DNA from: a virus
Reading direction: 5' to 3' (one strand)
IMG/VR virus record: IMGVR_UViG_3300045988_167796
Coordinates: 68,032 to 132,031 of that record
Length of the DNA: 64,000 bases
The position numbers and the translations under genes are program-made. Below, one piece after another: positions 100 to 49,418 of this stretch (positions are counted from its first letter, which is position 1; every line of letters starts with the position of its first letter). Below the pieces are notes generated by a model. It did no database searches, was not told where the DNA came from, and was given only the letters and a program-made list of their open reading frames with translations.

Positions 100-720
100 A
101 TGACGAAGATAAATTTTAAAAATGGTAGTTGCATAGAAGAAGTACGTGCAGATTCAAAACTAGTAAGAGGTAAAAGAGCTTTGCTTTATCCTATTGTATT
201 TGAATACGAAAAAGCTAATCCGGAAGAGGTAAATGAAATTATGGAAGCAGATATTAAAGAACTTGAAAAACAGAAGGAAGAATTAGAGTTAAAAATTAAA
301 GAGTATTATAAAGATGAAGAAGGTGCGCGAGTAAAGAGATATGAAGAGGAATATGCTGGTAAGTGCTTTAAGATTACTGACGGAAATGAAACAGTGTATA
401 TGAAATGTCTGAGTGGTTTATCGTGCAATACATATTGTTTTATGCATTGTATGAGATTTGTTTTACCAATTAACGTTGGATTTAAACGAGCGCTTACTAT
501 AAATAGAGATACTAAATATAATTATGTTTTTGATGACAACTTGTTATGCTTTGATGAAATGACAATTAAAACTTCGTCGTCATTTAGTATCAATAATATA
601 AAATACGCAGAAGAAATTCCTGTAGAAGAATTTGAAGCAGCTTTAAAAGAATATGGAAGACAATTAATTGAAGTATCCAGAGACGATTATACGATGAATG
701 GTAAGTATTTTAAGGAGTAA
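100..720 (+). CDS. hypothetical early protein (Cys-containing, no recognised domain)
   Basis: ORF track; co-oriented tightly packed early operon. Confidence 0.35.
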   Translation: MTKINFKNGSCIEEVRADSKLVRGKRALLYPIVFEYEKANPEEVNEIMEADIKELEKQKEELELKIKEYYKDEEGARVKRYEEEYAGKCFKITDGNETVYMKCLSGLSCNTYCFMHCMRFVLPINVGFKRALTINRDTKYNYVFDDNLLCFDEMTIKTSSSFSINNIKYAEEIPVEEFEAALKEYGRQLIEVSRDDYTMNGKYFKE

Positions 721-722
721 AT

Positions 723-923
723 ATGAGTCTCGACAAAGCAATAGAACACGGAAAAGAAAAGAGAAAACCATATATAGGCGCAAAAGCTAGAGATTGTACT
801 TGTAGGAATCATGGTAGTTGCGAATGGTGTAGAGGAAATCGGTTACATCAACAAATACGAGCTGACGAAGTAAGTAGACAGGAGTTGGAGGATTATTATG
901 ACAGTCAGAGAATTAGTAAATGA
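723..923 (+). CDS. hypothetical small Cys-rich protein
   Basis: ORF starts 3 nt after previous stop; CxC...CxxC pattern. Confidence 0.3.
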   Translation: MSLDKAIEHGKEKRKPYIGAKARDCTCRNHGSCEWCRGNRLHQQIRADEVSRQELEDYYDSQRISK

Positions 924-1275
924 ATTAACTAGACATTCTATTGATTGGGACTTAGAAGTACATGTTTGTATTACTGATAATATAGTTAAAAGTGGCGAAC
1001 CAACACAATGGGAAGACGTTAAAATAGACGCATGTGATTTATTTAATCCAACATGGTATGAAGGAAAAAGAAGATGTCATTTGGTTCTTGAGAGAATAGA
1101 TAAAAAGAAGAATATGGATAAACATAAGATTATCAAAAAATTAGACAGGCTTAAAGAAGATAATCCAAACCAGATTATATCTATTGAAACACCAAATAGA
1201 TGTGTTGAATGTAAAATTGGTGATGCTAACATTTACGAAGGATGTAATGGAGAGATTGTAATTGATAGCGAGTAA
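898..1275 (+). CDS. hypothetical protein
   Basis: ORF track; overlaps previous stop (operon coupling). Confidence 0.3.
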   Translation: MTVRELVNELTRHSIDWDLEVHVCITDNIVKSGEPTQWEDVKIDACDLFNPTWYEGKRRCHLVLERIDKKKNMDKHKIIKKLDRLKEDNPNQIISIETPNRCVECKIGDANIYEGCNGEIVIDSE

Positions 1276-1437
1276 AGAAATTTTGTATAAAAAGTATAAA
1301 TATGGGAAAAGCAAAAAGAAAACAAAGACCACAACCTCCTTGGTGGTGGAATTTAGACAATGACAATTGTTGGTTCTGTAAAAATAGGAATAATTGTAAT
1401 CAATGTAAACTATTAAAGGAGTTCAAACGAAAGAAAC

Positions 1438-1800
1438 GTGAATAATATAGAAGATATCAGAACTTATATGGGTGGAGATAATGAAGATGTTCCGGTTTAT
1501 CAACCTGCGGTGGATCATCTTCAATATTTAATAGATAATTGCGAAAAATATAATCTCCCATTACCAGAGATCTTCCCATGGATAGGCGGGAATGGTGTAC
1601 AAGCAGAGTGGGAATATAATAATGATTGGTATATAGAGATTGATAGTTCGTCTAATGGAATCATCGGATTATTTTTAAAAGATAGACATAATAACGGATA
1701 TGACGATACTATTTCATGTAGGTTTAATACTATAAAAGATGCTTTTCTTTTAGTAAAGGTATTTTTAGAAAGCGTGGTAAATAAAAATGTTTGCAAATAA
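1438..1800 (+). CDS. hypothetical protein
   Basis: ORF track. Confidence 0.3.
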   Translation: MNNIEDIRTYMGGDNEDVPVYQPAVDHLQYLIDNCEKYNLPLPEIFPWIGGNGVQAEWEYNNDWYIEIDSSSNGIIGLFLKDRHNNGYDDTISCRFNTIKDAFLLVKVFLESVVNKNVCK

Positions 1801-2044
1801 TATAGATGAAGCTTTAGAGCTTATTAAAAAAGAAAACAATCGTAATGAACATATAATTAATAGGTTAAGAGAAGATTTTCGGAAACTAAGAGACGAATAT
1901 GATAAAGACGAAGAGATTCAGGAAATGAAAGCCGAAGTAAAACATATACGTGCTGATCTTAACAGAGGATTTCCTATTTCTGAAGAAGAAGAAAAAAAAT
2001 TGAAGAATGGCAGAAAAAGCATGATAAAGAAGTACATGGATTAA
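1787..2044 (+). CDS. hypothetical charged coiled-coil protein
   Basis: ORF overlaps upstream stop by 14 nt; K/E-rich. Confidence 0.3.
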   Translation: MFANNIDEALELIKKENNRNEHIINRLREDFRKLRDEYDKDEEIQEMKAEVKHIRADLNRGFPISEEEEKKLKNGRKSMIKKYMD

Positions 2045-2193
2045 ATACATTAGAAAAGAAAATTGCTGCCGGAGGATGCATAGGCGGTCGATATTCTTAT
2101 CATTTCATACCTACAAGTATTGGGACAGTTGGAAAGTGTAGATGTAGTTGCGGAGCAGAATTTGTGTTCCAGGATTTGTAAGGAGATATAATT

Positions 2194-2415
2194 ATGATCA
2201 AAACAACAGTTACTAAAACAATAGAGAAATATGATGAAGATGGTAATCTTATTGAGAAAACAACCAGAACAGAAACAGCTGAGGATGATGAAACAAGATA
2301 TCCGGTGTATTCAAATGTTACTCCTGCATCACCTAATCCTAATACAACTCCTTGGTGGCAGCAACTATGGTGTACGACTACATGTACAAATGGAAATAAT
2401 GTAACACTACCATAA
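2194..2415 (+). CDS. hypothetical protein
   Basis: ORF with GGAG-like RBS (aggagatataattATG). Confidence 0.3.
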   Translation: MIKTTVTKTIEKYDEDGNLIEKTTRTETAEDDETRYPVYSNVTPASPNPNTTPWWQQLWCTTTCTNGNNVTLP

Positions 2416-2455
2416 GACATATGAGCTTAAAACTATCTCATAGGAGAAGTACTAA

Positions 2456-2677
2456 ATGATAAGATATCTGATTGAGTGGTATGAAGCTATGTATGATGAA
2501 AGAGATGATCAATGGTTCCTCATGCCGGTTGGTGAAATACATAGAGAAGTTTTTGAAGATGAATGTGAGTTTAATAAAAGACTTACTGAATTAGGAAATT
2601 ATAAAAATGGTTATATTGAAGATGTAATCATAGATGGAATTTATACATGTGAATTGCATAGAGTTACAAGTAGATAA
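2456..2677 (+). CDS. hypothetical protein
   Basis: ORF with RBS ggagaagtactaaATG. Confidence 0.3.
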   Translation: MIRYLIEWYEAMYDERDDQWFLMPVGEIHREVFEDECEFNKRLTELGNYKNGYIEDVIIDGIYTCELHRVTSR

Positions 2678-2696
2678 TTATTAGTTAGGAGAAATT

Positions 2697-3194
2697 ATGG
2701 AATTAAAAGATTTGAGCAAAATTAAATACATTTATAAAATATATGAGTCCGTAGATAACGTAGATAATGTTCTACATTTAGAAAAATATCCGGTTATTTA
2801 TATAAATAGTGAAATGTTATATTTTAAGGTGCACGGAAGTAAAATGCTTCATAGTATTTATTTAAGTAGCATCTTAGATAGTTATACTGAATATAAAAAA
2901 CATTTTTGGTCAAAATTTTTCTTTGGTATTTCAACAGATATAAATGATATATTTGAAGATTTAAAGAAACAACAATCTAAATATAAGCTAAAACAAGAAA
3001 AAGATAAATATGAAAAAGCATTGAATGAATTAAAAAAACTATATGAACAATCAATCAAACAGTTAGACACAGTGAAGAAATTACGTGAAGAAGTAGATAA
3101 GATTAATAATGATGAAGTGGATGCAGAAATAGAAAAATATGGCAAACTATTTGATGAAATACAAAGGTGTTTACAGAGTAAAAGCGAATATTGA
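2697..3194 (+). CDS. hypothetical coiled-coil protein
   Basis: RBS aggagaaattATG; K/E-rich C-terminal half. Confidence 0.35.
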   Translation: MELKDLSKIKYIYKIYESVDNVDNVLHLEKYPVIYINSEMLYFKVHGSKMLHSIYLSSILDSYTEYKKHFWSKFFFGISTDINDIFEDLKKQQSKYKLKQEKDKYEKALNELKKLYEQSIKQLDTVKKLREEVDKINNDEVDAEIEKYGKLFDEIQRCLQSKSEY

Positions 3195-3852
3195 TGAAAC
3201 AACAAATGACTTTCCAAGAAATAAATCTGGCTCTATAGAAACAGATGATTTATACATAAAATGTGCTTATGGAAATCAGATTTATCATTACGGTAGATCA
3301 ATTTTAGTTGCATATATTCCTTCAATTGGAAGGGGCCATAACATTTTAAGAGGACTTGCAGAAGAACTTTGTGGGATTGAGAATTCTAAAGAAAATGATG
3401 CTGTAAAAATACCATTCGAAGAATTATATGGCGCGCTTTTAAAAGAAGGAACAATAAAAGATATTAAAGAATATGATGAAGAAATTGAGTTCAAATTTAA
3501 TGCAAAAGATATTGAATTAATAGCAAAATATTTGAAACCACAGACTGGTGGGGCAGATATCAGTCCGTTCTCTACAAAGAACCTGCCGAAACAAAATTAT
3601 GTGATACCAGACTCGGATTTATCATCATATCAAGATACGATTAAAGATGTTGCGAAAGAGGATATCTTGGTTATCTCTCATATTACACGCAGTTTTATTT
3701 CTAATAAACTCGCTAAAAGTAAGCTGTATAAGTCGAAAGATATAAAGGCTGAGATGCGTAAAAGTATGTTAAAAGGTAAGGAATTTATTCATTATAGTGG
3801 GTACTGGAAACAATATTTAGATTATTTAAAAAAAGAATTACATAAGGAGTAA
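3139..3852 (+). CDS. hypothetical protein (true start probably downstream of 3139)
   Basis: ORF overlaps previous ORF by 56 nt in another frame. Confidence 0.35.
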   Translation: MANYLMKYKGVYRVKANIDETTNDFPRNKSGSIETDDLYIKCAYGNQIYHYGRSILVAYIPSIGRGHNILRGLAEELCGIENSKENDAVKIPFEELYGALLKEGTIKDIKEYDEEIEFKFNAKDIELIAKYLKPQTGGADISPFSTKNLPKQNYVIPDSDLSSYQDTIKDVAKEDILVISHITRSFISNKLAKSKLYKSKDIKAEMRKSMLKGKEFIHYSGYWKQYLDYLKKELHKE

Positions 3853-3858
3853 AAAATT

Positions 3859-4410
3859 ATGGCAAAAAGAGTAGCTAAGTTTGAAAAAGTAAGTTTTGAA
3901 CAGTTTAAGAAAGATTGGGAAGATACATATAATAATCCGAACTTATTGACAGATGAAAGTATTAATGACGCTTATTCTGTTGTTCTTCCAGAAAGAGCGA
4001 CAAAGTTTTCTGCAGGATATGATTTCTATTCACCGTTAGATTTTTCTCTTGAACCTGGAGAATCAATTAAAATACCAACAGGAATAAGGTGCGGAATAAA
4101 TACAGACTATGTTTTAATGTTGTATGTGAGAAGTAATGTTGGTTTTAAGTATAAAGTTGTACTTGCAAATGGTACTGGTATAATTGATTCTGATTATTAT
4201 AGTTCTGATAATGAAGGACATATTTTTATTAAACTTGTAAATAATGGAAATGTCCATTTTTATGTAAAAAAAGGTGAAGCTATCTGTCAGGGAGTATTTT
4301 TAGAGTATGGTATTACAGAGGATGACTGTGTAGAAACAACAAGAAATGGTGGATTAGGATCTACAAACGCTATAGATGAGTCAAGTACAGAAGGTGTAAC
4401 AAATGAATAA
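3859..4410 (+). CDS. dut: dUTP diphosphatase (trimeric dUTPase)
   Basis: motifs SAGYDFY, RSN(S), GTGIIDSDY, RNGGLGST typical of dUTPase motifs I-V; RBS aaggag. Confidence 0.8.
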   Translation: MAKRVAKFEKVSFEQFKKDWEDTYNNPNLLTDESINDAYSVVLPERATKFSAGYDFYSPLDFSLEPGESIKIPTGIRCGINTDYVLMLYVRSNVGFKYKVVLANGTGIIDSDYYSSDNEGHIFIKLVNNGNVHFYVKKGEAICQGVFLEYGITEDDCVETTRNGGLGSTNAIDESSTEGVTNE

Positions 4411-4660
4411 TGTTTCATACTATTTCTGTGATTTAAAAACAAAAGATATTACATGTCCAAAAATGCATGAATGTAAACGGTACGAGCCTATCAAGGACGT
4501 ACCGTATGACAAATATAGCGAACTTGGTTTTGCAAAACTGCATAATATATGCAATGATGATAATGGATATAAGATGTTTTTGAAGATGGACAAAACATAT
4601 GATCATAATCTGGAGGAAGATAATATTGAACAAAATGTTAGTAAAACTGAGCACGATTGA
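4403..4660 (+). CDS. hypothetical protein
   Basis: ORF overlapping dut stop. Confidence 0.3.
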   Translation: MNNVSYYFCDLKTKDITCPKMHECKRYEPIKDVPYDKYSELGFAKLHNICNDDNGYKMFLKMDKTYDHNLEEDNIEQNVSKTEHD

Positions 4661-4871
4661 AAATGCAAAAGAGTTTTGTGAAATTGTAAGCAGTGAACAA
4701 TATCGTGATGTTGATATAGATCTATCATGCGGAAGATATGTCATAGATGCTAAATCTATTCTAGGTATTTTAAGTATGGATATAACAAAGAAAATGACGG
4801 TAACGTTTCATGGTGATGGATTTCAGAGAAGAAAAGAATTTTTTGAGAAGTTAAATAAATGGAAGATTTAA
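4599..4871 (+). CDS. hypothetical protein
   Basis: ORF track; last gene before terminator. Confidence 0.3.
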   Translation: MIIIWRKIILNKMLVKLSTIENAKEFCEIVSSEQYRDVDIDLSCGRYVIDAKSILGILSMDITKKMTVTFHGDGFQRRKEFFEKLNKWKI

Positions 4872-4940: not shown

Positions 4941-6149
4941 TTGAAATTTGCAGTTGATAAAGGTATAATAAATTTATCATACGTGCAAGAACAAATTGAA
5001 ATGAATAAAAGAAAAGAATACTTAGATCAGCATATGTATTCAATTAGTCAAGGAAAGGACGGGAAGTGGAGAACGTATCTCCCGGATGATGAGCACGGGA
5101 GAAAGATGATAAAACGAGTAAATAAAAAAGATATAGAAGATATTGTTATTGAGTATTACAAAAATAAGGAAGTAAAAAAAATACCAGAAACATTTGATAA
5201 TGTTTATCATCATTGGAGAAAGGTGCAGGACGTATTAGTATCAGATAATACAATTGCAAAATACAATACAGATTATAAAAGGTATTTTTTAAATTCAGAT
5301 TTTTCTCAAAAACAAATAGAAAATATATCAGAAGAAGACATTAAAGTTTTTATTTGCAATACAGTGAAATCATTAAAACTATGTAAAAAAGCATGTAAAA
5401 CTTTGTTTGGATATGTTCATAATGTAATGAATAGTGCTATAATCAATAAAATAATCAAAGAAGATCCTACAAAGTTTTTAACAGCAAAACAATTTTATAA
5501 ATATTGTACATCAAATATAAAACCAGCAGAAACACGAATTGTATCTGATGAAGATATGAGTAAATTGTACAGACAGTTTAAAGATGACTATTTCAAACAT
5601 CCAAATTATATTCCTACATATGCCGTTCATCTCGCAACATTAACAGGAATGAGAGTAGGAGAGATCTCTGCTCTTACATGGGATTGTATTACTGACAAAT
5701 ATATAATCATTAACAAGTCTGAAAAATATAATCGTATAACGAAAGAATATTTTATTGATAAAACAAAAAATGGTAAAGAAAGAGTATTTCCTATTACTAA
5801 TGAAATAAAGTGCATTCTAGAAAAAGTAAAAAAAGTAGAAATACAGAACGATTATATTTGTGAGTGGGTGTTTGCTAATGAAAATGGAAGAATTCATGCC
5901 CCGGTCATTTCATCTTGTTCAAAGAATAAGTGTAGACAAATAGGCATAACAGAAAAAGGAATACATGCATATCGAAGAACGATCAATTCAAAAATGAGAT
6001 GCGAAGGAGTATCTGCTGTTGTAGCTGCTTCAATCTTGGGACATACAGAAGAGGTTAATGATAAATACTATACATTTGATGTCAGTAGTTTAGAAGAAAA
6101 AACAATGATTATATCTCGAATAAACTCTGAGATTGGTATTGCAAGGTAA
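4941..6149 (+). CDS. int: tyrosine recombinase / phage integrase
   Basis: R..GEISALTWDCI box, HAYRRT (HxxR) and C-terminal Y region; adjacent to att-like repeats. Confidence 0.85.
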   Translation: MKFAVDKGIINLSYVQEQIEMNKRKEYLDQHMYSISQGKDGKWRTYLPDDEHGRKMIKRVNKKDIEDIVIEYYKNKEVKKIPETFDNVYHHWRKVQDVLVSDNTIAKYNTDYKRYFLNSDFSQKQIENISEEDIKVFICNTVKSLKLCKKACKTLFGYVHNVMNSAIINKIIKEDPTKFLTAKQFYKYCTSNIKPAETRIVSDEDMSKLYRQFKDDYFKHPNYIPTYAVHLATLTGMRVGEISALTWDCITDKYIIINKSEKYNRITKEYFIDKTKNGKERVFPITNEIKCILEKVKKVEIQNDYICEWVFANENGRIHAPVISSCSKNKCRQIGITEKGIHAYRRTINSKMRCEGVSAVVAASILGHTEEVNDKYYTFDVSSLEEKTMIISRINSEIGIAR

Positions 6150-6207
6150 TCAAAAATAATTAAAAAGGTAATCAAAGGTAATCAAAAGTAATCAGAACAT
6201 TTGTTTC
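6144..6207. repeat. left arm of attP-like site: 3-4 tandem GGTAATCAAA units followed by AACATTTGTT
   Basis: ggtaatcaaa at 6145, 6167, 6177 plus agtaatcaga; mirrors 6331-6375. Confidence 0.55.
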
Positions 6208-6211
6208 CATC

Positions 6212-6238
6212 AAGTCTGGAAACCATTGATTTTACTGG
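6212..6238. repeat. 27-nt imperfect direct repeat copy A (AAGTCTGGAAaCCaTTGATTTTACtGG)
   Basis: repeated at 6290-6316 flanking the tRNA-like core. Confidence 0.5.
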
Positions 6239-6244
6239 TTTCAA

Positions 6245-6290
6245 TCGGGGCAACAGGATTTGAACCTGCGACCTCACGGAGCGCAAATAA
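6245..6290 (-). other. tRNA 3' fragment (variable loop + T-arm GGTCGCAGGTTCAAATCCTG + acceptor 3' strand), probable attP core
   Basis: reverse complement gives GAGGTCGCAGGTTCAAATCCTGTTGCCCCGA, a T-arm like Firmicutes tRNA-Met family; no matching 5' acceptor strand nearby so not a complete tRNA. Confidence 0.55.
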
Positions 6291-6316
6291 AGTCTGGAAC
6301 CCTTGATTTTACAGGC
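6290..6316. repeat. 27-nt imperfect direct repeat copy B
   Basis: AAGTCTGGAAcCCtTTGATTTTACaGG. Confidence 0.5.
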
Positions 6317-6330
6317 TTTTTCAGAGGGCA

Positions 6331-6375
6331 AAATCAAAAGGTAATCAAAAAGGTAATCAAAACATTTGTTCGATT
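6331..6375. repeat. right arm of attP-like site: tandem GGTAATCAAA units followed by AACATTTGTTCG
   Basis: ggtaatcaaa at 6340 and 6352; same order as left arm. Confidence 0.55.
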
Positions 6376-6627
6376 TTTCCATAATTTTATAGGAAAGGAG
6401 TATCTTGCACGTATGATGAAAAAATATTAATTTAAGTCAGTAGTATTTATTGATTTAAATTAGTATTTTTTTACAGTAAAGAAGAAAGAACCAATACCTA
6501 TCAGCGTGCAATAATAGGTATGGCTCAATCCTCAATAATACTTATTCGTCGTTTACAATTATATAATACTACATGATAATATAAAAATCAATTTCTTTCG
6601 TTCGAGATAGTTCGATAAATAATCTCG

Positions 6628-6655
6628 TTTACAACTATACAATTTGTGGTATAAT
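6628..6655 (+). promoter_or_regulatory. sigma-70 promoter (TTTACA-16-TGnTATAAT)
   Basis: near-consensus -35, extended -10. Confidence 0.55.
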
Positions 6656-6685
6656 ATTCCAAAAGGATACAAGGAGGAACCACCA

Positions 6686-6949
6686 ATGCCTAGAGGAAGA
6701 AAACGAGTAGTAGAAATGTCAGCAGCAGACATCAAAGTTAAGATCGAATCTAATACTGATAGAATTGATGAACTTACAAACGAAATCAAAACTCTGAAAT
6801 TAGAAAATAAAAATCTTTTGAAAGATCTGACAGTAGCTGAATCTAAAGAAAAAGAAGAGGCTGCGAAAAGAGAGATAGAAGAGATTGCCGAGATGATTAA
6901 GAATAGCGGTAAGTCTTTTGAAGAAATAAAAGCATTATTAGAAAACTAA
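6686..6949 (+). CDS. small coiled-coil protein (88 aa, MPRGRKRVV...)
   Basis: ATG 8 nt after aaggagg RBS; ORF track lists longer upstream start 6644. Confidence 0.5.
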   Translation: MPRGRKRVVEMSAADIKVKIESNTDRIDELTNEIKTLKLENKNLLKDLTVAESKEKEEAAKREIEEIAEMIKNSGKSFEEIKALLEN

Positions 6950-6953
6950 AAAA

Positions 6954-6988
6954 ATGGGCAGAAGAGTATCAAAAACTCAACTGCCCAT
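6954..6988. terminator. bidirectional hairpin between convergent genes
   Basis: atgggcag...ctgcccat 8-bp stem. Confidence 0.4.
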
Positions 6989-7234
6989 TAATTCGTCTTT
7001 TAATAACCATTCGTCTTCATATGGAATAACTTCTCTTGCGTCGTCTAAGACATGACATCCGATTTTGCATTTTTCGTCTCCGCAAGTACATGCCATTTCA
7101 ACTTTCCTATAATTCCCTGATTGTCCTTCGTATTTTACAGGCCACAATCCATTGTAATGAAGTTTTTCACAGAATCCATATGGATAATCATATTTCTCGT
7201 TCATTGCAGCACCTCCATAAATATAGTATAACAT
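6977..7234 (-). CDS. small Cys-rich protein (CxCx4CxxxC)
   Basis: RBS ggaggtg; own TTGTCA-17-TATACT promoter. Confidence 0.45.
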   Translation of the reverse strand: MLYYIYGGAAMNEKYDYPYGFCEKLHYNGLWPVKYEGQSGNYRKVEMACTCGDEKCKIGCHVLDDAREVIPYEDEWLLKDELMGS

Positions 7235-7300
7235 TTCATTATTTTATTGACAAATAGAACAAATGTTCGTATAATGAAATCAATAAAGAACAAACGTTCT
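7225..7300. promoter_or_regulatory. divergent back-to-back promoters sharing the -35 region, with two GAACAAAYGTTC inverted-repeat operator-like sites
   Basis: plus: TTGACA(7247)-17-TATAAT(7270); minus: TTGTCA/TATACT; operators at 7257-7268 and 7288-7299. Confidence 0.55.
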
Positions 7301-7316
7301 GATTGGAGGTGCTGAC

Positions 7317-7535
7317 ATGATCATTAATAAAAATAGCCAGATAATGTGTGAAAATCGTAATGCTGAATTGCTATTAGAAGGAATCTTTCTTATTGACTCT
7401 GAAGTAGAATTTGAAATCATTGGTGATGAAATAACAGAACACGAAGCTTTACTTGTATACTGTGCAGTAGAAGAACGTGTAAGCTACTCTGACGGACGAA
7501 AAATGATTTATATACCAATTCTTAGTGTAGCGTAA
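7317..7535 (+). CDS. hypothetical protein
   Basis: ggagg RBS, consensus promoter upstream. Confidence 0.4.
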   Translation: MIINKNSQIMCENRNAELLLEGIFLIDSEVEFEIIGDEITEHEALLVYCAVEERVSYSDGRKMIYIPILSVA

Positions 7536-7539
7536 AAAA

Positions 7540-7575
7540 ATGGGATAGAGAGCCGTATAGCTCGTCTATCCCATA
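7540..7575. terminator. bidirectional hairpin terminator
   Basis: tgggataga...tctatccca stem after A-run. Confidence 0.4.
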
Positions 7576-7578
7576 ATG

Positions 7579-8133
7579 TTATTCATCAATTACTTCCCAT
7601 GTTTCTGATTCTGGTTCGCATGTACTATGTACAAAAGAGTTCTTTCCACCAGCTGCTTCATAAGAACGTATTAAATCATTGAAAGATTCCTTGTCCATAG
7701 ATGTCCATTTTTGCTCTTTATGATAAAATCTATATGACTGAGAAATTCTATCTTTAATTTTTGCTCTATCTTTAGAATCATTCTTTTCTTGCATATCTTG
7801 TATTGTAACAACTAAACCATTCACAATATTTTTAATGTCAATAAGAGAACTTTCTATGCTTTCCTGCTTTTCAGTCAACTGTTTTTGAATATCAAAAGAT
7901 TGTTCCCTGTCATGAACACGATTAGTTTTGAATTCGTCAATTTCTTTTTGCATATTATCTAATCGTTCTGTCAGTTTCTCTTTTTCAATACTTTTATTTG
8001 TTCTAAGACCAAGCGCCACGAGCACTTTTCCACCTAATTCTTTAGCTCCTATGATAATAAGAGCAGCCAAAATAATGCATATCAAAAACGTACTAAAACC
8101 TATTTCATTCACTCTATTAATATACTCTATCAT
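7579..8133 (-). CDS. putative holin or lysis-associated membrane protein (single N-terminal TM + coiled coil)
   Basis: hydrophobic segment FSTFLICIILAALIIIG; directly downstream of endolysin. Confidence 0.3.
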   Translation of the reverse strand: MIEYINRVNEIGFSTFLICIILAALIIIGAKELGGKVLVALGLRTNKSIEKEKLTERLDNMQKEIDEFKTNRVHDREQSFDIQKQLTEKQESIESSLIDIKNIVNGLVVTIQDMQEKNDSKDRAKIKDRISQSYRFYHKEQKWTSMDKESFNDLIRSYEAAGGKNSFVHSTCEPESETWEVIDE

Positions 8134-8169
8134 ACCCTCAATCGCATCCCTTCTCTCTTATATTATTTA

Positions 8170-9810
8170 TCATGCATATAATGCTATTAACGTGTTGTAC
8201 CCTACGATTCCATCAACCGTTAAATTACCTTTTGATTTCTGATATTTTTTTACAGCTGACTCAAGTCCTGAACCGAATGATCCCGGGCATTCAACACCTT
8301 TTGGATCAATATTATTTAAAAGCATACTAATCTCGAGCACCGTAACAAGATATCCTTTCGAACCCTTTTTCATATTTACATGCTTCATGACTTCTTTAGT
8401 GTTATCACCAATTACTCCGTCAATTTTAAGACTACAATCTAAGTCTTTATTCAATGCAATCTGCAATGCCTTGCATAAAGTCTTTTTTGTCTCGGGGCCA
8501 TTTACACCGTCAGTTTTAATATCACATCCAACAAAATTATTCAAATGAATCTGAGCATTTTTAATAAGCTGATTTTCTGCAGAAGTGTCAGGAGCAGAAG
8601 GTTTAGAAGATGTATTTGTAGAGCCATTAGAAGTGATATCAGAGAAGTCAATTCCTTTGCCTGTGAACCTTAATCTCTTGTCCCACCCTTTAGAGTACAG
8701 GTACCACGACTGAGTTCTAATTTCGTTTCCAGAGTTATCAATTGTATCTGAAGTTCCTTCAGAACTTCTTGCATGAACAATATTATCTTTATCAATTGCA
8801 AGAGCAACATGATAATTAATATTTAACTCAATATCACCTTTTTGCATCTGTGCATGAGCGGTCTGATTTGTTGCTACAACTTCAAATCCGCAATTCAGCA
8901 TCTTCATCATATTACCTGTATATGAGCAATTCGCTTTGAGATATGTAGCCTGTTTTGTAAGACCATTTTTGATAAAAGCATAATAGAATGCAGTACATAC
9001 TAAACTAGAACAGTCAAATGATTTCGGCGTGTCAATGTTATATAAACTTCTAATTTTCTGACTGTATCCATGAGTATTATCTTTTGCAATATTTACAGCA
9101 AATTCAACAGCATCATTGATTACATTTTTGATAATTTCAGATGCAAGAGGAGCATTTGGAGTAGCAGTAGAAGTCGTATTTTTCAAGTTTCTACAATCCA
9201 GATATTTCTCTGTATAGCATACATCAAGATCAACAGTTGATCCATTAATTCCAGATACTTTTCCTGATTCACTATACTGAAAAAAATCACACGAAATAGG
9301 AGGAGTATGCATGGTTTGAGATGAATTATAGTGTGCAATCCACAAAGCATATCCTTTATTTTTTACTTCATCTGAATAGTAATTTTTATAAAAATCCATA
9401 TTAGCATAATATCCAGGTGTGTACCCGGATTTCTTGATAGCTTCGCAGAATTCAATTGTGAATTTAGAGCATTCATTTTTACCTAATGTAACACCTTTAT
9501 TCTTTGCTTTTGTTATTGTGTCATACTCGAAATCAAAGAAAATTGGTAAGTCAATATTATAATTCTTTATAGTTTCAATACATTTCGCAACTTCTTTTCT
9601 TACCTCTGCGAGAGTGGTAGAGTAGCAGAACCAATAGACACCAATCTTGATTCCATTGAGAGCACAAGATTTTGCATATGTATAGAAATTAGGATCTACT
9701 GTAGTTCCATATCCGGCACGAATAATCACATGATTATAATCTGCTTTTTTCAACTTTGCAAAGTCGATTGTACCTTGCCAGTATGAGATATCTATTAATT
9801 TTGTTGACAT
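8170..9810 (-). CDS. endolysin: GH25 muramidase + NlpC/P60 endopeptidase + PG_binding_1 domain
   Basis: N-term DISYWQG...D..G GH25 signature; FDCSSLV Cys/His NlpC-P60-like; C-term GxxT..AL..FQ-type peptidoglycan-binding repeats; aaggagg RBS. Confidence 0.85.
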   Translation of the reverse strand: MSTKLIDISYWQGTIDFAKLKKADYNHVIIRAGYGTTVDPNFYTYAKSCALNGIKIGVYWFCYSTTLAEVRKEVAKCIETIKNYNIDLPIFFDFEYDTITKAKNKGVTLGKNECSKFTIEFCEAIKKSGYTPGYYANMDFYKNYYSDEVKNKGYALWIAHYNSSQTMHTPPISCDFFQYSESGKVSGINGSTVDLDVCYTEKYLDCRNLKNTTSTATPNAPLASEIIKNVINDAVEFAVNIAKDNTHGYSQKIRSLYNIDTPKSFDCSSLVCTAFYYAFIKNGLTKQATYLKANCSYTGNMMKMLNCGFEVVATNQTAHAQMQKGDIELNINYHVALAIDKDNIVHARSSEGTSDTIDNSGNEIRTQSWYLYSKGWDKRLRFTGKGIDFSDITSNGSTNTSSKPSAPDTSAENQLIKNAQIHLNNFVGCDIKTDGVNGPETKKTLCKALQIALNKDLDCSLKIDGVIGDNTKEVMKHVNMKKGSKGYLVTVLEISMLLNNIDPKGVECPGSFGSGLESAVKKYQKSKGNLTVDGIVGYNTLIALYA

Positions 9811-9865
9811 ATGTGTACCTCCTTTACTTATTGATGCTTTATTTTAATAAAAATAATGTCATGTA

Positions 9866-9894
9866 TTGACAATTGTATATACATTGTTTAAAAT
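9866..9894 (+). promoter_or_regulatory. sigma-70 promoter TTGACA-17-TAAAAT
   Basis: consensus -35, good -10. Confidence 0.55.
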
Positions 9895-9936
9895 AGACTA
9901 TAGTGGCAGAAAATTTATATTTTGGGGGAAACCTTT

Positions 9937-10302
9937 TTGAAAAATAGAATCTGCGTTATCGTTTCGGTAGTACTATCCATACTGTTATGTATGTGCTTGT
10001 TTTATAATCTTGTCGCAGGTGCTCCAGAGGAATATGAATCTGCAATAAGATACATGATAAGCGCTGCTGGATTTTCTGTTATTGTCTCTGGCTTAGTCGG
10101 ATACTCCCTCTATAAAATTTTCTTGTTTGAAATATCAAAAGAGAAAAAAGATGTTAAAGAAACAAAGAAAATAACAGACAAATCATATCAAGATTCCTTA
10201 ACTGCATTAGTTAGTGCATTTGAAAAAGAAGGAGCGTTATCAGAAGATGAGATAAATAATCTACGCTCTTATTTAGACAAAATAGACAAATCGGAGGAAT
10301 AA
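9937..10302 (+). CDS. small membrane protein, partner of the M56 protease (ORF track start 9922)
   Basis: 2 TM segments; TTG start after gggggaa RBS; 4-nt gap to next gene. Confidence 0.45.
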   Translation: MKNRICVIVSVVLSILLCMCLFYNLVAGAPEEYESAIRYMISAAGFSVIVSGLVGYSLYKIFLFEISKEKKDVKETKKITDKSYQDSLTALVSAFEKEGALSEDEINNLRSYLDKIDKSEE

Positions 10303-10306
10303 CAGT

Positions 10307-11593
10307 ATGTTGCTATTATGGATGTCAGTTGCTGGATCAATTCCTCTGATTGTGTTTCTAATAACATGGTTTATTCAGAAAAACAGTTTTAATTATTCAC
10401 TTGGGAAGATATTGCTGTATCTGAGTATGATGTTCTACCTTGTGCCTTTTCAATTATTGACCAGGATGCTCCCAAATATCATGTACAATAATAACATCGT
10501 TAATAAAATTAGAATATTTAATTCATTGGAGTATCATTTTGAATATGATAAATCTGCATATATAAATATAGACGATGGAATTATGTGGGTCCCAAGATGG
10601 ATTATTTTCATTTTGCATATTTGGTTTATTATTGTTGTGTTTTTTGCAATATATCAAATAATGAAGTATAGAAAGTCTATACATTATATTTTAAAAGATT
10701 CCGAAGAAAGATCTTACGATATTAATGGTGCAGGAACTGTTTCTATTTTGATAAACAATAATATTACAACACCGTATACAGTTGGATTTATTCGTTTACA
10801 CATTGTCTTCCCGGAAAACATTATAGAATCCCAATATTCTTATTTGGTTTATAGACACGAGTTATGTCATGCGAAAAACTACGATGCGTTAATTAAACTT
10901 ATTTGCTTGATTATCATATGTCTTCATTGGTTTAATCCTATATCAATATTACTTTTGTTTTCGTATAGCACTTTATGTGAATATATAAGTGATGATTACG
11001 CTACAAAAGGACTGACTCATGAAGAAAAAAGAGAGTATGCAAAACTACTCTTGGATGTAGTGTCATCAAAAACAATGCCTGTTGTATGGAGAAATAACTT
11101 TTTGAGCACGGAATACCTATTGAAAAGGAGGCTGACGTATATTATGAAAAAGAAATTTTCAAAGATTCAAAAATTAATCACAGTTATAGTTTCAATTGTT
11201 ACGGTTTTAGCATGTGCTGTAACAGTATTTGCATACGAACCATTTGTGTCAACTACAGATAACGCAATAATTGAACTTTCGGATGGAGATTTTGTTGATT
11301 TTGGTTTTATTGAATCATTTGATAGTATTACAGATGAAATTAATTTCCATGGACATGAAGAAATATTCATTACAGATGACGGAGAGTATATTATTATCGA
11401 CAACGACCATTCATCATATGCCATTTGTAATCATACATTTGCAGATGGCAGATACTCAAAACATATCAGCAATAGTACTGGTGGATGTACGGTAAAGATC
11501 TATGATGCGCAGATTTGTACAAAGTGTAAATATGTCGTTGTAGGAGATCTTATTAGCACTACGACATATGTTACGTGCACCCATACTAGCTAA
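10307..11593 (+). CDS. BlaR1/MecR1-like M56 family membrane metalloprotease with Cys-rich C-terminal domain
   Basis: multi-TM N-term; HELCH (HExxH) followed by HWFNP, as in M56 signal transducers; C-term lacks a penicillin-binding fold and is Cys/His-rich. Confidence 0.65.
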   Translation: MLLLWMSVAGSIPLIVFLITWFIQKNSFNYSLGKILLYLSMMFYLVPFQLLTRMLPNIMYNNNIVNKIRIFNSLEYHFEYDKSAYINIDDGIMWVPRWIIFILHIWFIIVVFFAIYQIMKYRKSIHYILKDSEERSYDINGAGTVSILINNNITTPYTVGFIRLHIVFPENIIESQYSYLVYRHELCHAKNYDALIKLICLIIICLHWFNPISILLLFSYSTLCEYISDDYATKGLTHEEKREYAKLLLDVVSSKTMPVVWRNNFLSTEYLLKRRLTYIMKKKFSKIQKLITVIVSIVTVLACAVTVFAYEPFVSTTDNAIIELSDGDFVDFGFIESFDSITDEINFHGHEEIFITDDGEYIIIDNDHSSYAICNHTFADGRYSKHISNSTGGCTVKIYDAQICTKCKYVVVGDLISTTTYVTCTHTS

Positions 11594-11620
11594 ATTCACA
11601 TATGCATACACACGGCATTG

Positions 11621-11656
11621 AAAAGAGAGGCGTAATTGCCTCTCTTTTACATTTTA
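11621..11656 (+). terminator. rho-independent terminator
   Basis: aagagaggc-gtaatt-gcctctctt then TTTACATTTT. Confidence 0.6.
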
Positions 11657-11662
11657 TACGCA

Positions 11663-11691
11663 TTGACAAAACAAACAAATGTTCGTATAAT
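11663..11691 (+). promoter_or_regulatory. sigma-70 promoter TTGACA-17-TATAAT with AACAAATGTTCG motif in spacer
   Basis: consensus hexamers; drives short ORFs 11713-11975. Confidence 0.55.
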
Positions 11692-11978
11692 ATACATACA
11701 GAGGTGATATTTATGACAAATGATTATATGGTAACAGTCCCAACAAAAAAAACAAGGAATTTCTGTAATAGCATCATTTTCTACGAATGGTGATATTATG
11801 CCTTTATACTTTCAAACAGTTGAGAATGAAGAAAAGTATTCATTTCGTGTCAGAGTAATCGGTAAAAAAGAGAATAATGTTATATATTCATTCAATTGTA
11901 CTTACAATCACGTAGGCATAGAAAAACATGTATGTCTGAATTATTGGATAAGAGATCATATATGGACTATATAAAATA

Positions 11979-14420
11979 TTATACTTCTACAAGCGTATAA
12001 ACACCATTACTGTTTGTATTACATTCATCAATAAATGTGAAATACCTGCAATTTGCTGTAGTAGTGAAGTCCAATACTAATCCGCCTCTTGGTTCGTTAT
12101 TTTGTACACATCCATTTTCCATATATAAATATACTTTATTCTCATCATAACATCTAGGTGCAATAGTACAATCATTATTAAATATATCTTTCGTATTATT
12201 TCTGGTTATTGTATACCTGGTATTTGGTTTTACTTTGATATAACCATTATATATCGCCCTAGTACCATCGCTAGTTACAAACTCACCATTAGATAATGTT
12301 ATATCAGCATTATAAAGAATTTTAGATGTACTTATTGTATAATCAAATCCTGTACTAATTGTGATCCTTATTCCGTCTTCATGTACAGAACTTCCGTTAC
12401 TGTATGTATAGTATACACTTACATATCCCTCGTTTACTGAAACGTCGCTTGTTGCATTTCCCTTCATGCATTCAAGAGATCCTTCATAATTTGTATCCCA
12501 ATACCATGTTAAATCGGAACCAGATACCGTTATTGTAGTGTCATCCATAAATGTAATAATAGCAACAGCATCAGAAGGATCGAATGCGTCTCCATATTGA
12601 TAATTTGTTTTTGGCATTGTTTGAAATGTGATACTCTTTGGTACACTTCCTTCTAATGCTTTTAATCTGTCCATAAGACTATCTATAATACTTAAAGTCA
12701 CAGTTTCAGTAGAATTGTCACCTTTAGTGTATGTAATAACATTCTCATCTGCGCTTAATGATTTAATGTATGTTGTTGTAATTTTCTGATTTGACGAATC
12801 GTTGGTTGCTTTTAGAGAAGCGGTAGCAGTATTGGCGTTCCCATCAAGATTTCCTATGAAAGTATTTGCAACAATTTTACCGTTATCTTTAATAACCATA
12901 AGATTAGTAAAATTACTGCCAGAATCAAGACTCTGCTGAAATGAGAAAACTTCTGTGTCATCAGTTGAATCGTTTGTTAAGTTAATTCTTTGTTGATATG
13001 TGCCGTTATCCCAACATAAATGTTGTGGCCCAACAAATTTTATATTACCAGTAATAGTATCTCCATTTTTATTTACAGGAGTATATCCAAGTGCATTTGT
13101 AATATTTGATGATGTGATTTCACTACGAATTGTAGCAGAAGATTTATTTTCAACGTTTCCAAGACCTATATCCGTTTTATTTACATCTAAATATAAGCAT
13201 AATCTGCCATTTTTATATTGATAAATTGGATGTGTTGCAGAAATGTTCCCTCTATATGTATCATATGCATCACCAATATATATATATACATATTCGTCTT
13301 CAGACTCCGGCAATTGTTGAGAATACATTTCATCAGAAATATAAAATAAACCATTAGCAATTATCCCTTTAAGATAAATTGGTTTATTTGCTGTAAGTGT
13401 CTGACCGCAATTTAATGTATATCTTAAATCTGTATTTGAAAATGCCTGATATATTCTTGCTCCTGTTAATGAACCGGATGAAATTTTATTATTATTCCCA
13501 GGATTAAAGAAATATATTTCCTGCGGGTAAAAACCAGATGTGTTTTTAGATTTTGTTGTACCAGTTCCAGATGCAGTTACTATACTTTGAAATGTATTTT
13601 TTGTTGAATCACGCATAATTATAGTGTATCCATATACTCCATTTGTTCCAGCAGTCACACTAGATATGTCTTTATGTAATTGTGATATTGTATTATTATC
13701 GCCGGATTCTTGTAAACCATTATTACTTCCATCAAATTCATTATATCCGCTATAATTAGTACTTCCAGTCCCAGGCACATCAGAAAATTTACATATTGTA
13801 TCATAAAATGAGAAAATACAATTATCCTGTTCTATTAATTCTATTTTGAATGTCCTTGCATATGATGACGACGTTGGATTTGCGGAGCTTCTTAGACCAA
13901 TACCTACCAAATGCCCATAACCATTTGTATATCCTGTAGAAGTACATGAATATAAAGTATGATAATATAACGTTCTATAAGAAGTGGAATAATGAGCATT
14001 TGTACATTTATATATTGTTCTTAATGATTGTGAACCCCATAATTCTACTTCAAAGAATCCTGTATAATTATTTTGGCCAGGCACTGAAGAAGAAATTCTA
14101 TATTTTATATGCCATTCATCATAATATGTATTAGGTCTAATATAGCCGAAATAAAATGTCCCTTCATTGAAATTGTTTGCAGATGCATATATGTTTGAAT
14201 ATGTATGTGATTCTATAATAGTTTTTTGCGCATTAGGAGAACCAATGTATGGAAGAGACATCCATGTAGACGTACCGTTCCCTATTTTATAATGCCCATT
14301 ATTAATTCCGTCTTTTGTATACGCTTTTTCACCAAGTAATAGTACTGGATTAGAAGAAGACCATTCACTTTCAGTCTTATAGGCATTTATTATTCTTGTT
14401 TTTAAGGTATTAGTTGCCAA
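11979..14420 (-). CDS. tail fiber protein 2 (N-terminus paralogous to 14496..17072)
   Basis: MATNTLKTRI... shared N-term; S/T/N/Y-rich beta-rich fibre composition. Confidence 0.55.
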   Translation of the reverse strand: MATNTLKTRIINAYKTESEWSSSNPVLLLGEKAYTKDGINNGHYKIGNGTSTWMSLPYIGSPNAQKTIIESHTYSNIYASANNFNEGTFYFGYIRPNTYYDEWHIKYRISSSVPGQNNYTGFFEVELWGSQSLRTIYKCTNAHYSTSYRTLYYHTLYSCTSTGYTNGYGHLVGIGLRSSANPTSSSYARTFKIELIEQDNCIFSFYDTICKFSDVPGTGSTNYSGYNEFDGSNNGLQESGDNNTISQLHKDISSVTAGTNGVYGYTIIMRDSTKNTFQSIVTASGTGTTKSKNTSGFYPQEIYFFNPGNNNKISSGSLTGARIYQAFSNTDLRYTLNCGQTLTANKPIYLKGIIANGLFYISDEMYSQQLPESEDEYVYIYIGDAYDTYRGNISATHPIYQYKNGRLCLYLDVNKTDIGLGNVENKSSATIRSEITSSNITNALGYTPVNKNGDTITGNIKFVGPQHLCWDNGTYQQRINLTNDSTDDTEVFSFQQSLDSGSNFTNLMVIKDNGKIVANTFIGNLDGNANTATASLKATNDSSNQKITTTYIKSLSADENVITYTKGDNSTETVTLSIIDSLMDRLKALEGSVPKSITFQTMPKTNYQYGDAFDPSDAVAIITFMDDTTITVSGSDLTWYWDTNYEGSLECMKGNATSDVSVNEGYVSVYYTYSNGSSVHEDGIRITISTGFDYTISTSKILYNADITLSNGEFVTSDGTRAIYNGYIKVKPNTRYTITRNNTKDIFNNDCTIAPRCYDENKVYLYMENGCVQNNEPRGGLVLDFTTTANCRYFTFIDECNTNSNGVYTLVEV

Positions 14421-46686: not shown

Positions 46687-47112
46687 ATGTTAATAAAATG
46701 TCCTGAGTGTGGTAAAGAAGTATCAGATCAATCTGAAGCATGTATTCATTGTGGATATCCGCTGTTAAAAAACAGGAGATCGTCTGTGACTGAGTACCAT
46801 GGAGAATGCCCATTCTGTCATGCAATAGATAATTGGAGAATAGATACTGAAAAAGGAGAAGCTATTTGTAATAAATGTGGATGGCGAGAAACTATTGATG
46901 ATACGCAGTGGAAAATATATTGCAAGCTACAAAGAGAACGTGAACAAAAAGAATCCGAAAAAAAACAATCCGAGAATCTTCCAAAATGTCCAAAATGTGG
47001 TTCAACATCTATAGGAACAAAGAATAGAGGATATTCTCTTATCTGGGGATTTTTAGGATCCGGAAGCCCTAGAAATGTATGCCAGAAATGTGGCTATGAG
47101 TGGAGGCCGTAA
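46687..47112 (+). CDS. triple zinc-ribbon protein (3x CPxCG...CxxCG)
   Basis: strong RBS; three CxxC..CxxC pairs. Confidence 0.55.
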
Positions 47113-47134
47113 ACTTACCAAAAGGATATACACT

Positions 47135-47896
47135 ATGATTACAAATAATGAAAACGACAGAAGAATCATTAAAGAAACATACGATTATTTCAATAAAAAC
47201 GCTTATAGCATACAAGAAATGAGTATTGATAATATATATGTATGCAATGATATTCAAAACGACATTAATATATTTTTAAACAATGATCATATAAATAAGC
47301 AATGTAATGGTCATACTATTTATAAAAATGCAAAAAAAACTGAAGATATAATTATTTTAGTAGAATTGCGTGAAAATATGCCAGATAACATAATAACATT
47401 ATTCCACGAATTTATTCATGTGTATGATATCAAGTTGTTCTTACAAAAATATCATACTCTTGATAATGATTATTTTTATGCATATACAGTATGGAGTGAA
47501 TTTCATGCTTGTTATATAAGTGAAAAATTATTAATAGAATACTATAAAAATAATGGTATCCCAAATATAATAAATGATTTTTTAAGTACAAAAGAAGAAC
47601 AAATCAATGAAATACTTAAATATATAAGAATTGCTCACAACCGCGAGATGTCAATATTTGATAAAATGAATATTTTTGCTAAGCTTTTTCTTTTCGGGTA
47701 TTATGAAGATTGCGGCTATCATTTTGTATATGAATTTATAGACCATTTTTATAATGATTTAGAAGATCGTATTAAAAATTATAATATTACAAATTATTTA
47801 TATCAATGTTTGGAAAATGATTTTAATATTGACACTATTACTTATTTTAAAGAGTTGATTTTTGTTAAAGATATTAGCGACTCATCTACTTCATAA
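47135..47896 (+). CDS. HExxH-motif protein, possibly ImmA/IrrE-like metallopeptidase (ORF track start 47075)
   Basis: HEFIH motif; aaaaggat RBS before ATG 47135. Confidence 0.45.
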   Translation: MITNNENDRRIIKETYDYFNKNAYSIQEMSIDNIYVCNDIQNDINIFLNNDHINKQCNGHTIYKNAKKTEDIIILVELRENMPDNIITLFHEFIHVYDIKLFLQKYHTLDNDYFYAYTVWSEFHACYISEKLLIEYYKNNGIPNIINDFLSTKEEQINEILKYIRIAHNREMSIFDKMNIFAKLFLFGYYEDCGYHFVYEFIDHFYNDLEDRIKNYNITNYLYQCLENDFNIDTITYFKELIFVKDISDSSTS

Positions 47897-47910
47897 TACG
47901 TAAAACATTA

Positions 47911-47945
47911 AAAGAGCAGATTATTCTTTCTGCTCTTTATCATCT
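47911..47945 (+). terminator. rho-independent terminator (10-bp perfect stem)
   Basis: aaagagcaga-ttattctt-tctgctcttt. Confidence 0.55.
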
Positions 47946-48036
47946 TTATAAAATATTTTATTATCATCAATACATATTCCATGACATATAATTGTGCTAG
48001 AATCGATTATTTGATATCTATCTTTACATATAAACA

Positions 48037-49385: not shown

Positions 49386-49418
49386 GATCGTACCGATATT
49401 GTTAATTATTTTCTCCTT

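Follow-up and report, generated by a model that had tools for sequence, protein, structure and literature searches.

How a temperate phage might tie the expression of its accessory genes to recombination at its attachment site is the question raised by a 64,000-nucleotide stretch of viral DNA, positions 68,032 to 132,031 of the IMG/VR record IMGVR_UViG_3300045988_167796 (the window, by which we mean this whole stretch). A first-pass annotation of the window had pointed out an inverted-repeat motif, with half-sites GAAC and GTTC and a four-nucleotide spacer (N4), that recurs at three consensus promoters and in both arms of the phage attachment site (attP). It had proposed that one DNA-binding protein, a repressor or an excisionase or integrase arm-binder, coordinates accessory-gene expression and recombination. 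Our analysis favours, with a probability of roughly 80%, the reading that all five copies of the motif are binding sites of host LexA, the promoter copies serving as operators and the arm copies perhaps making recombination sensitive to the SOS response. The integrase protein of this phage was found on one 171,722-bp ENA contig (ERZ27229639 k119_175764), of which the window represents roughly 68.0-132.0 kb; 78.9 kb of the 171.7 kb were covered by our scans.

Five GAAC-N4-GTTY dyads were found in the window, starting at 6195, 6360, 7257, 7288 and 11673, and every copy described in the annotation was present at its place. A search with GAACNNNNGTTY returned exactly these five distinct sites, both in the window and in all 78.9 kb of the source contig that was covered. 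All five lie in non-coding DNA, which makes up 5.9% of the window. When GAACAAAYGTTC was searched with up to one mismatch, five matches were obtained against 0.88 expected, a count reached by one of 100 shuffles of the window; the 10-mer AACAAAYGTT gave six matches against 0.91 expected, which none of 100 shuffles reached. The sixth of these matches, at 17905, is intragenic and probably arose by chance. The looser pattern GAACNNNNGTTC (up to one mismatch) showed no excess across the window (15 matches, 15.4 expected), and the signal is therefore a clustered intergenic set and not a general excess. The dyad set is real and non-random, and the motif search that the annotation had proposed thus bears out the five-site intergenic cluster, which stands above expectation, and not the looser pattern.

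The sequence GAAC-N4-GTTC is the LexA (DinR) operator of Bacillus, for which the clostridial form is GAACnnnnGTTT/C (PMC4234289), and all five sites fit this Firmicutes dyad or its clostridial version GAAC-N4-GTTT. Compared with the 14-nucleotide SOS-box consensus of Bacillus subtilis, CGAACATATGTTCG (PMC8270828), the five sites have two to four mismatches. Ten SOS boxes are listed for phage SPbeta, in which LexA-bound sites have dissociation constants (Kd) of 3.9-12 nM; two of the boxes lie 30 bp apart in the divergent yolC-yolD region, where LexA bound in vitro with a Kd of 3.9 nM (PMC8270828). By mismatch count, the five window sites fall within the range of these LexA-bound SPbeta sites. 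The box at 7287-7300 of the window is identical over all 14 positions to the SPbeta yolC(1)/yolD(2) SOS box, aGAACAaAcGTTCt, and the other box of the yolC-yolD region differs by one base from window positions 7256-7269; the two-box arrangement was seen directly in the SPbeta sequence. The motif is thus very probably a LexA operator. As this is the operator of Firmicutes LexA, host LexA, much the most parsimonious candidate, is likeliest to bind it, rather than a phage repressor, excisionase or integrase. The idea that one protein coordinates expression and recombination survives in this form, with that protein now predicted to be host LexA.

The sigma-A promoter core is overlapped or touched by the boxes at 7257, 7288 and 11673, and not by the two attP-arm copies. 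LexA box 1 (7256..7269, aGAACAAATGTTCg) has the core 12-mer GAACAAATGTTC at 7257-7268 and shows two mismatches to the 14-mer consensus, none of them in the core. It lies inside the 17-nt spacer of a rightward promoter (7247..7275, plus strand), TTGACA(7247)-17-TATAAT(7275), which agrees with the sigma-A consensus at 12/12 positions; the box spans approximately -26 to -15 of this promoter and touches its -10. Box 1 is also 4 nt upstream of the -35 of a leftward promoter (7225..7253, minus strand), TTGTCA(7253-7248)-17-TATACT(7230-7225), which has a TG extension and a 10/12 match. The -35 elements of the two promoters overlap, TTGTCA at 7253-7248 lying across the rightward TTGACA, as expected from the back-to-back promoters with a common -35 region described earlier. 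LexA box 2 (7287..7300, aGAACAAACGTTCt; GAACAAACGTTC at 7288-7299, then TGATT to 7304) covers approximately +6 to +17 of the rightward transcript. Its position downstream of box 1 agrees with the annotation; its spacing, given there as 18 nt, was corrected, the box starting 12 nt past the -10 hexamer and 19 nt past the end of box 1. A distance of 31 bp, or roughly three turns of the helix, separates the centres of boxes 1 and 2, and both dimers would therefore sit on one face of the DNA. The annotation's reading of the motif as a dimeric operator is supported, as is its place in and beside strong promoters that share a -35 region.

The rightward promoter is upstream of a gene for a 72-amino acid (aa) protein (7317..7535, plus strand) and the leftward promoter is upstream of a divergent gene for a 75-aa cysteine-rich protein (6977..7204, minus strand); both are predicted to be SOS-induced. 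The start of the leftward gene, previously put at 7234, was moved to an ATG at 7204 that is preceded by the ribosome-binding site GGAGGTG. No match to either protein was found in Pfam, PHROGs or GenBank phages, homologues of both were present in close relatives only, and neither showed homology to SPbeta YolC or YolD. An AlphaFold model of the 72-aa protein (predicted local distance difference test, pLDDT, of 80) had no fold match in the PDB. The 75-aa protein has four invariant cysteine residues; its structure model was of low confidence (pLDDT 53) and unusable. The TGATT that follows box 2 (7300-7304) corresponds to bases 1-5 of the arm repeat TGATTAC, which stands beside the box in both attP arms as well (6188-6194 and 6353-6359). 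It was kept in the related loci L188, L190 and L191 and replaced by TGCAA in L192, and could be due to chance, a relic of common origin or a weak integrase arm site.

Related loci (designated here by L numbers) were fetched using homologues of the 75-aa and 72-aa proteins: L188, L190, L191, L192, L048, L274 and L276. Both promoter boxes were kept in 7/7 of these loci, and the rightward 12/12 promoter was conserved in each. The intergenic sequence of L048 was identical to that of the window. Box 1 itself was kept in six loci, representing five distinct sequences; in L276, the most divergent, it reads AAACAAATGTTT, with two outer-base mismatches. Most substitutions fell in the N4 or in the outermost G/C, for example GAACGAATGTTC, GAACTAATGTTC, GAACAAATGTTT and AAACAAACGTTC, and the boxes were far better conserved than the DNA that separates them or precedes the -35. 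This pattern of conserved half-sites around a variable N4 holds for the promoter boxes and for the arm boxes described below.

The third promoter copy is LexA box 3 (11672..11685, cAAACAAATGTTCg; AAACAAATGTTCG at 11673-11685), which has two mismatches to the 14-mer consensus, one of them in the core. It is located in the spacer of a second sigma-A promoter (11663..11691, plus strand; 12/12), touching its -10; this promoter has the sequence TTGACAAA-NNN-AACAAATGTTCGTATAAT, is near-identical to 7247-7275 and is preceded by a terminator at 11621-11648. Downstream, no gene was called in the source record between 11594 and 11978, a region with an A8 run at approximately 11743-11750. The uncalled stretch at 11713..11974 (plus strand) contains a 26-codon open reading frame (ORF) at 11713-11793 with a good ribosome-binding site and a 58-codon ORF at 11798-11974. 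An Rfam scan of 6000-12100 revealed nothing relevant. The stretch may encode small peptides or an RNA, to judge from its promoter a damage-induced one. Type I toxin systems are known from SPbeta-like phages. In the 20 kb of L274 that was covered, there was no GAACNNNNGTTY box besides those of its divergent promoter.

The combination of box and promoter was also found well beyond this phage. The 18-mer AACAAATGTTCGTATAAT, which joins the box to the promoter, was present at 11 IMG/VR loci on ten contigs, representing approximately nine distinct sequences, and most of these loci have a -35 at the right distance. The module GAAC-N4-GTTCG plus TATAAT was then searched in metagenomes; the scan for GAACNNNNGTTCGTATAAT gave 122 matches, and a -35 agreeing at 4/6 or more positions accompanied 76 of these. 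Pfam analysis of the 109 first downstream ORFs identified IMS (Y-family polymerase) in 14, IMS_C in 11, radical SAM in 11, IclR in 7, LexA (Peptidase_S24 plus LexA_DNA_bind) in 3 and YolD in 2. AAAT was the commonest N4 in this set, followed by ATAT, GTTT, ATTT, TAAT, AAAC and GAAT, and these are the spacers of the window phage and its relatives.

The remaining two copies lie downstream of a tyrosine integrase gene, int (4941..6149, plus strand), whose 402-aa product matched Pfam Phage_integrase (3e-14) and PHROG 1 (3e-35) and has relatives with 57-68% identity in Lachnospiraceae prophages and gut phages. Positions 6245..6279 (minus strand) contain approximately 35 nt identical to the 3'-end of tRNA-Pro(GGG), and 6145-6372 is therefore attP, with this tRNA-derived segment as its core. 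In L049 and L050, which are integrated relatives, ARAGORN found an intact tRNA-Pro(GGG) adjoining int. The near arm has four direct (G)GTAATCA repeats (6145..6194, plus strand; starts at 6145, 6167, 6177 and 6188), the first of which overlaps the int stop codon; the far-arm repeats (6330..6359, plus strand) are AAAATCA at 6330 and GGTAATCA at 6340 and 6352. Repeats of the GTAATCA type also flank the att sites of integrase relatives. The core is flanked by CCWTTGATTTTAC elements, CCATTGATTTTAC at 6223..6235 (plus strand) and a second copy, CCCTTGATTTTAC, at 6300-6312, which are conserved across the att sites of this integrase family. Each arm ends with a LexA-type box: that of the near arm (6194..6207; GAACATTTGTTT at 6195-6206) lies between the last GTAATCA repeat and the core, and that of the far arm (6359..6372; AAACATTTGTTC at 6360-6371) touches the last GGTAATCA. 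The junctions read GTAATCA directly followed by GAACATTTGTTT, and GGTAATCA directly followed by AAACATTTGTTC, with the two boxes 165 bp apart.

The presence of the motif in both attP arms agrees with the annotation, and the link between promoter and attP copies proved to be conserved in related phages. In L194, whose integrase is 61% identical, GAACATACGTTT and GAACGTATGTTT occupy the same two arm positions 165 bp apart; in the alignment with the window the N4 and the adjoining spacers differ, the conserved parts being the half-sites, the repeats, the core and the TAAAATCAAGGG elements. A gut phage family of approximately 80 kb (for example L397, integrase 57% identical) carries two perfect boxes, GAACATAGGTTC and GAACGAGTGTTC, on either side of the same tRNA-Pro core at a distance of 164 bp. 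The near-arm position (6194..6207) was also occupied in L188, L192, L194, L397 and IMG/VR group A, and homologous far-arm boxes were present in L070, L276 and the L015 family. Only one arm has a box in L188, L192, L070, L276 and an IMG/VR group integrating at tRNA-Arg(CCG). The 75-80-kb L015 family has arm repeats of a different type, GGGAACA, yet its far arm ends with GAACAAAYATTC. Across lineages the N4 of the arm box was AAAT, ATAC, GTAT, ATAG, GAGT, AAGC or ATTA, and the half-sites persisted. Two boxes 164-165 bp apart were found in at least 21 loci in addition to the window, and the layout was present in 39 of the first 120 loci from one pattern scan, on human-gut phage contigs. These phages belong to families of 25-172 kb, and beyond the int/att module no other gene common to them was noticed.

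The frequency of the arm box was assessed with GAAC-N4-GTTY-TGATTAC and the composition-matched control CAAG-N4-GTTY-TGATTAC, each of which matched at least 120 loci; a match was counted as being in arm context when two or more TGATTAC repeats followed it within 45 nt. Among the matches listed, 60 of 144 were in arm context for the first pattern and 0 of 120 for the control. In 24 non-redundant att regions of the family boxes occurred at 0.83 per kb, against a density of 0.21 per kb over the rest of these loci (P~0.001); two of the eight boxes counted in the att regions are tRNA T-arm sequence unrelated to the arms. The pattern GTAATCA-N(12-42)-CCWTTGATTTTA was discarded, as its matches were mostly due to chance. 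In position the box resembles an attP accessory site, abutting the terminal arm repeat with its partner 164-165 bp away. It does not resemble an integrase arm-type site, being palindromic, lying beside repeats of both the GTAATCA and the GGGAACA type and missing from many relatives. Judged from these comparisons, the arm box is an optional but selected addition to the recombination site, independent of arm-repeat specificity, and therefore fits a host factor rather than the arm-binding domain of the integrase.

Several observations weigh against host LexA acting at all five sites. The specificity of LexA was taken from Bacillus and Clostridium and may differ in a Lachnospiraceae host, and a LexA-like protein of the phage's own could be encoded in the remaining ~93 kb of the 171.7-kb contig. 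Each arm box of the window has one core mismatch, and boxes of some relatives have two (AAAC..GTTT in L064, GAAT..ATTC in L016 and GTAT in L210). A promoter scan gave no recognisable promoter at the arm boxes. Boxes were absent from the arms of L049 (68% integrase identity) and L050 (62%), the closest integrated relatives, of the syntenic L274 and of L013, L196-L207 and others; relatives with other integrase modules (L048, L190/L191) also had none. The mismatches, the missing promoter and these absences could be explained if only the promoter boxes were LexA operators and the arm copies were functionless relics, hitch-hikers of A/T-rich repeats or weak pseudo-sites, the more so as the T-rich sequence that naturally flanks TGATTAC overlaps the GTTT/GTTC half. 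We consider this unlikely, since such leftovers do not account for a GAAC half held at exactly 4 nt in arm context while the control half was never so placed among the matches listed, for half-sites that persist while the N4 differs by lineage, for boxes that stay as their flanks diverge or for a box spacing kept to within one base pair.

The identity of the binder was weighed in the same way. A dimeric protein encoded by the phage, as the annotation had suggested, could be a LexA-like or other repressor from elsewhere in the genome or the 87-aa product of 6686-6949, a protein with basic N-terminal residues and a coiled coil, whose gene co-occurs with the GTAATCA-type att module (L188, L189, L192, L274 and L276, with a remnant in L048). 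The part of the phage outside the sequence covered leaves room for such a protein, and the 10-mer AACAAATGTT is stricter in this lineage than LexA would need. This explanation is nevertheless very improbable: the motif equals the LexA consensus and includes a proven LexA site, the same box and promoter recur in seemingly unrelated phage contigs and before bacterial SOS genes, and the arm boxes run through phage families in which no further common gene was noticed besides int/att. Additionally, a search of small ORFs (100-4871, 46687-50333 and others) revealed no phage repressor or LexA homologue, and no helix-turn-helix (HTH) or S24 domain was detected in the ORFs scanned, among them the small ones nearby. 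Binding of the arm copies by the integrase, through its arm- or core-binding domain, or by an excisionase, with their likeness to the promoter boxes a coincidence, is scarcely credible. In its favour, the boxes invariably adjoin the last repeat of an arm and move together with the int/attP module, and GAACA, the left half-site in the L015 family, is similar to the arm repeat GGAACA there. Against it, the box is a palindrome, unlike the directly repeated arm sites; it stands beside two unrelated types of arm repeat, which points to a host factor and away from the arm-binding domain; its N4 varies freely, and its asymmetric centre faces opposite ways in different families; and integrase relatives function at att sites that lack it.

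With host LexA as the preferred binder, the following scheme can be proposed. In an undamaged lysogen, LexA dimers on boxes 1-3 would shut the consensus promoters, box 3 silencing the 11663 promoter as boxes 1 and 2 silence the divergent pair. DNA damage would activate RecA and bring about LexA self-cleavage, upon which the 72-aa and 75-aa proteins and the 11713-11974 transcript would be expressed. We infer this binding and repression from the operators and their placement. For the attP boxes, binding by LexA is probable, if with less assurance than at the promoters; control of recombination by the arm copies is a tentative suggestion drawn from their position. No promoter was recognised there, weak -10-like sequences upstream of the AGGAG-N4-CTTG element described below having been considered and found unconvincing, and the role of the arm boxes would therefore be non-classical and conjectural. 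LexA on an arm box might occlude the neighbouring integrase arm site or cooperate with it, which would make integration or excision dependent on SOS status. It is possible, though doubtful, that a LexA dimer on each attP arm, and hence on attL and attR, acts as an accessory factor or gate-keeper of the tyrosine-integrase site. Dimers beside the terminal arm repeats would then shape or block the recombination complex, and cleavage of LexA would directly license excision or prevent re-integration, with no need for a damage-inducible excisionase or integrase promoter. Several lineages of gut phages of Lachnospiraceae with integrases of this family would have this design in common.

As in SPbeta (SOS boxes of yolC-yolD, yorB and yopS/T), the boxes of the window follow the same consensus, share one identical 14-mer and include a pair ~30 bp apart at a divergent promoter between small accessory genes. 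The two phages also have recombinase, attP, accessory genes, lysin and then minus-strand structural genes in common, with shared structural families. They differ in that the proteins under the boxes show no homology to YolC or YolD, the host is Lachnospiraceae and not Bacillus, and a tyrosine integrase with arm sites takes the place of the serine recombinase SprA; no attP SOS boxes are listed for SPbeta. LexA is not the lysogeny repressor of SPbeta, and lexA could be deleted without prophage induction (PMC8270828). The promoter boxes are in this sense ordinary, extending the known theme of SOS boxes in SPbeta-like phages to a 172-kb Lachnospiraceae phage. The apparently new part is the conserved pairing of putative LexA boxes with integrase arm sites; no description of LexA boxes in att arms was found in the literature, which is weak negative evidence.

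Non-integrase proteins (IHF, Xis and Fis) have sites at fixed positions beside the arm-type sites of lambda attP. The box of the window is like these accessory sites in that its position is fixed and recurs across lineages with the 164-165 bp geometry constrained; unlike them it is a LexA box, optional within the integrase family, and its effect on recombination is putative. LexA 'controls integron cassette recombination' (PMC4234289), and integrons likewise link SOS to site-specific recombination. There LexA represses the recombinase promoter, whereas the boxes of the window lie inside the recombination substrate, downstream of int. LexA plus gp7 acts at the P1 dinBoxes of GIL01, and the Gifsy phages have LexA-repressed antirepressors (PMC4551915, PMC3121763). 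In those systems host LexA and not a cleavable phage repressor couples phage genes to damage, as is proposed here; the 72-aa and 75-aa proteins showed no homology to the proteins involved.

If LexA does bind the attP boxes, the DNA-damage response would be physically linked to the recombination substrate, and this would give temperate phages of Firmicutes, which are not known to have IHF, one way of making excision depend on damage. The layout is abundant in human-gut phage contigs, and the idea could thus be relevant to prophage induction in a dominant family of gut bacteria. The ~80-kb L397-type family would be a convenient second system in which to study the attP-LexA idea. L397, L399, L405, L406 and others are ~80-kb contigs of IMG/VR sample 3300045988 and represent an abundant human-gut family; in this family a gene similar to the DUF4417 genes of L070 and L015 comes after attP.

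Other features were noted around attP. An AGGAG-N4-CTTG element lies 3' of the far arm (window 6396-6417) and is followed by approximately 10 nt of alternating pyrimidine and purine, for example AGGAGTATCTTGCACGTATGAT. It was also found in L070, L013, L014, the L015 family, L188, L192, L194, L274 and L276, and is kept across integrase relatives only 28-31% identical, in several of which a short ORF or a terminator comes next; the element may act as structural DNA or specify a small transcript or a peptide. The 87-aa protein (6686-6949, plus strand), which begins MPRGRKR and continues into a long coiled coil, is a candidate recombination accessory or directionality factor; two promoters of its own, at 6552 and 6628, serve the gene. 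L048 combines the truncated remnant of its gene with a different integrase module. Comparison of otherwise near-identical relatives (L048, L190/L191, L274 and L194/L397) with window 4941-6440 showed that int/attP modules are swapped, with four combinations of arm-repeat type and tRNA target (GTAATCA, GGTGTAT, TTCCCAT and the GTAATCA type at another tRNA). Relative to int, the attP segment of L194 and L397 has the opposite orientation to that of the window. The SOS-controlled divergent promoter stayed constant while the neighbouring module changed.

Between the two promoter regions, 9922-11593 (plus strand) encodes a BlaR1-type M56 peptidase of 428 aa (Pfam 3.6e-22), preceded by a BlaI-like protein of 121-126 aa. 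A good promoter at 9866-9894, with the near-palindrome ACAATTGTATATACATTGT in its spacer, lies upstream of this pair, which may be a phage-borne membrane signalling pair. A BlaI/MecI/CopY operator (core ACAnnTGT, similar to TACAnnTGTA) was considered as the identity of the motif and was rejected because the BlaI-like product has no DNA-binding domain: the protein encoded at 9922-10302 lacks a winged helix, retains only the C-terminal Penicillinase_R part (E 2.9e-4) and has hydrophobic N-terminal stretches that read as two membrane helices. The syntenic relative L274 encodes a XerC-like recombinase and an RHH protein in the place of this pair.

The wider genome gives the setting of these elements. 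A megablast search of the region against GenBank phages returned no match. Genes flanking it carry the SPbeta-type families YonG, YonD, YonB, YomW and YomU. The minus strand of 12000-64000 encodes ORFs of 2371, 1275, 1318, 2765 and 1742 aa, the last of which matches PhageMin_Tail, and the GC skew of 12000-64000 is uniformly negative, which together with these giant ORFs fits an SPbeta-like late region. By these families and the giant minus-strand ORFs, the window belongs to a large SPbeta-like phage, which according to its attP core integrates into tRNA-Pro(GGG), probably in Lachnospiraceae. We infer the host from the integrase relatives L049 (68%) and L050 (62%), which occur in Lachnospiraceae and Clostridia metagenome-assembled genomes and directly adjoin tRNA-Pro(GGG). 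Upstream of int, the window encodes a dUTPase (3859-4410) and an HPr-like protein (4599-4871; PTS-HPr, E 1.6e-5), and just outside the window (L044 1-4071) are genes for a guanylate kinase, the anaerobic ribonucleotide reductase NrdD and its radical-SAM activase.

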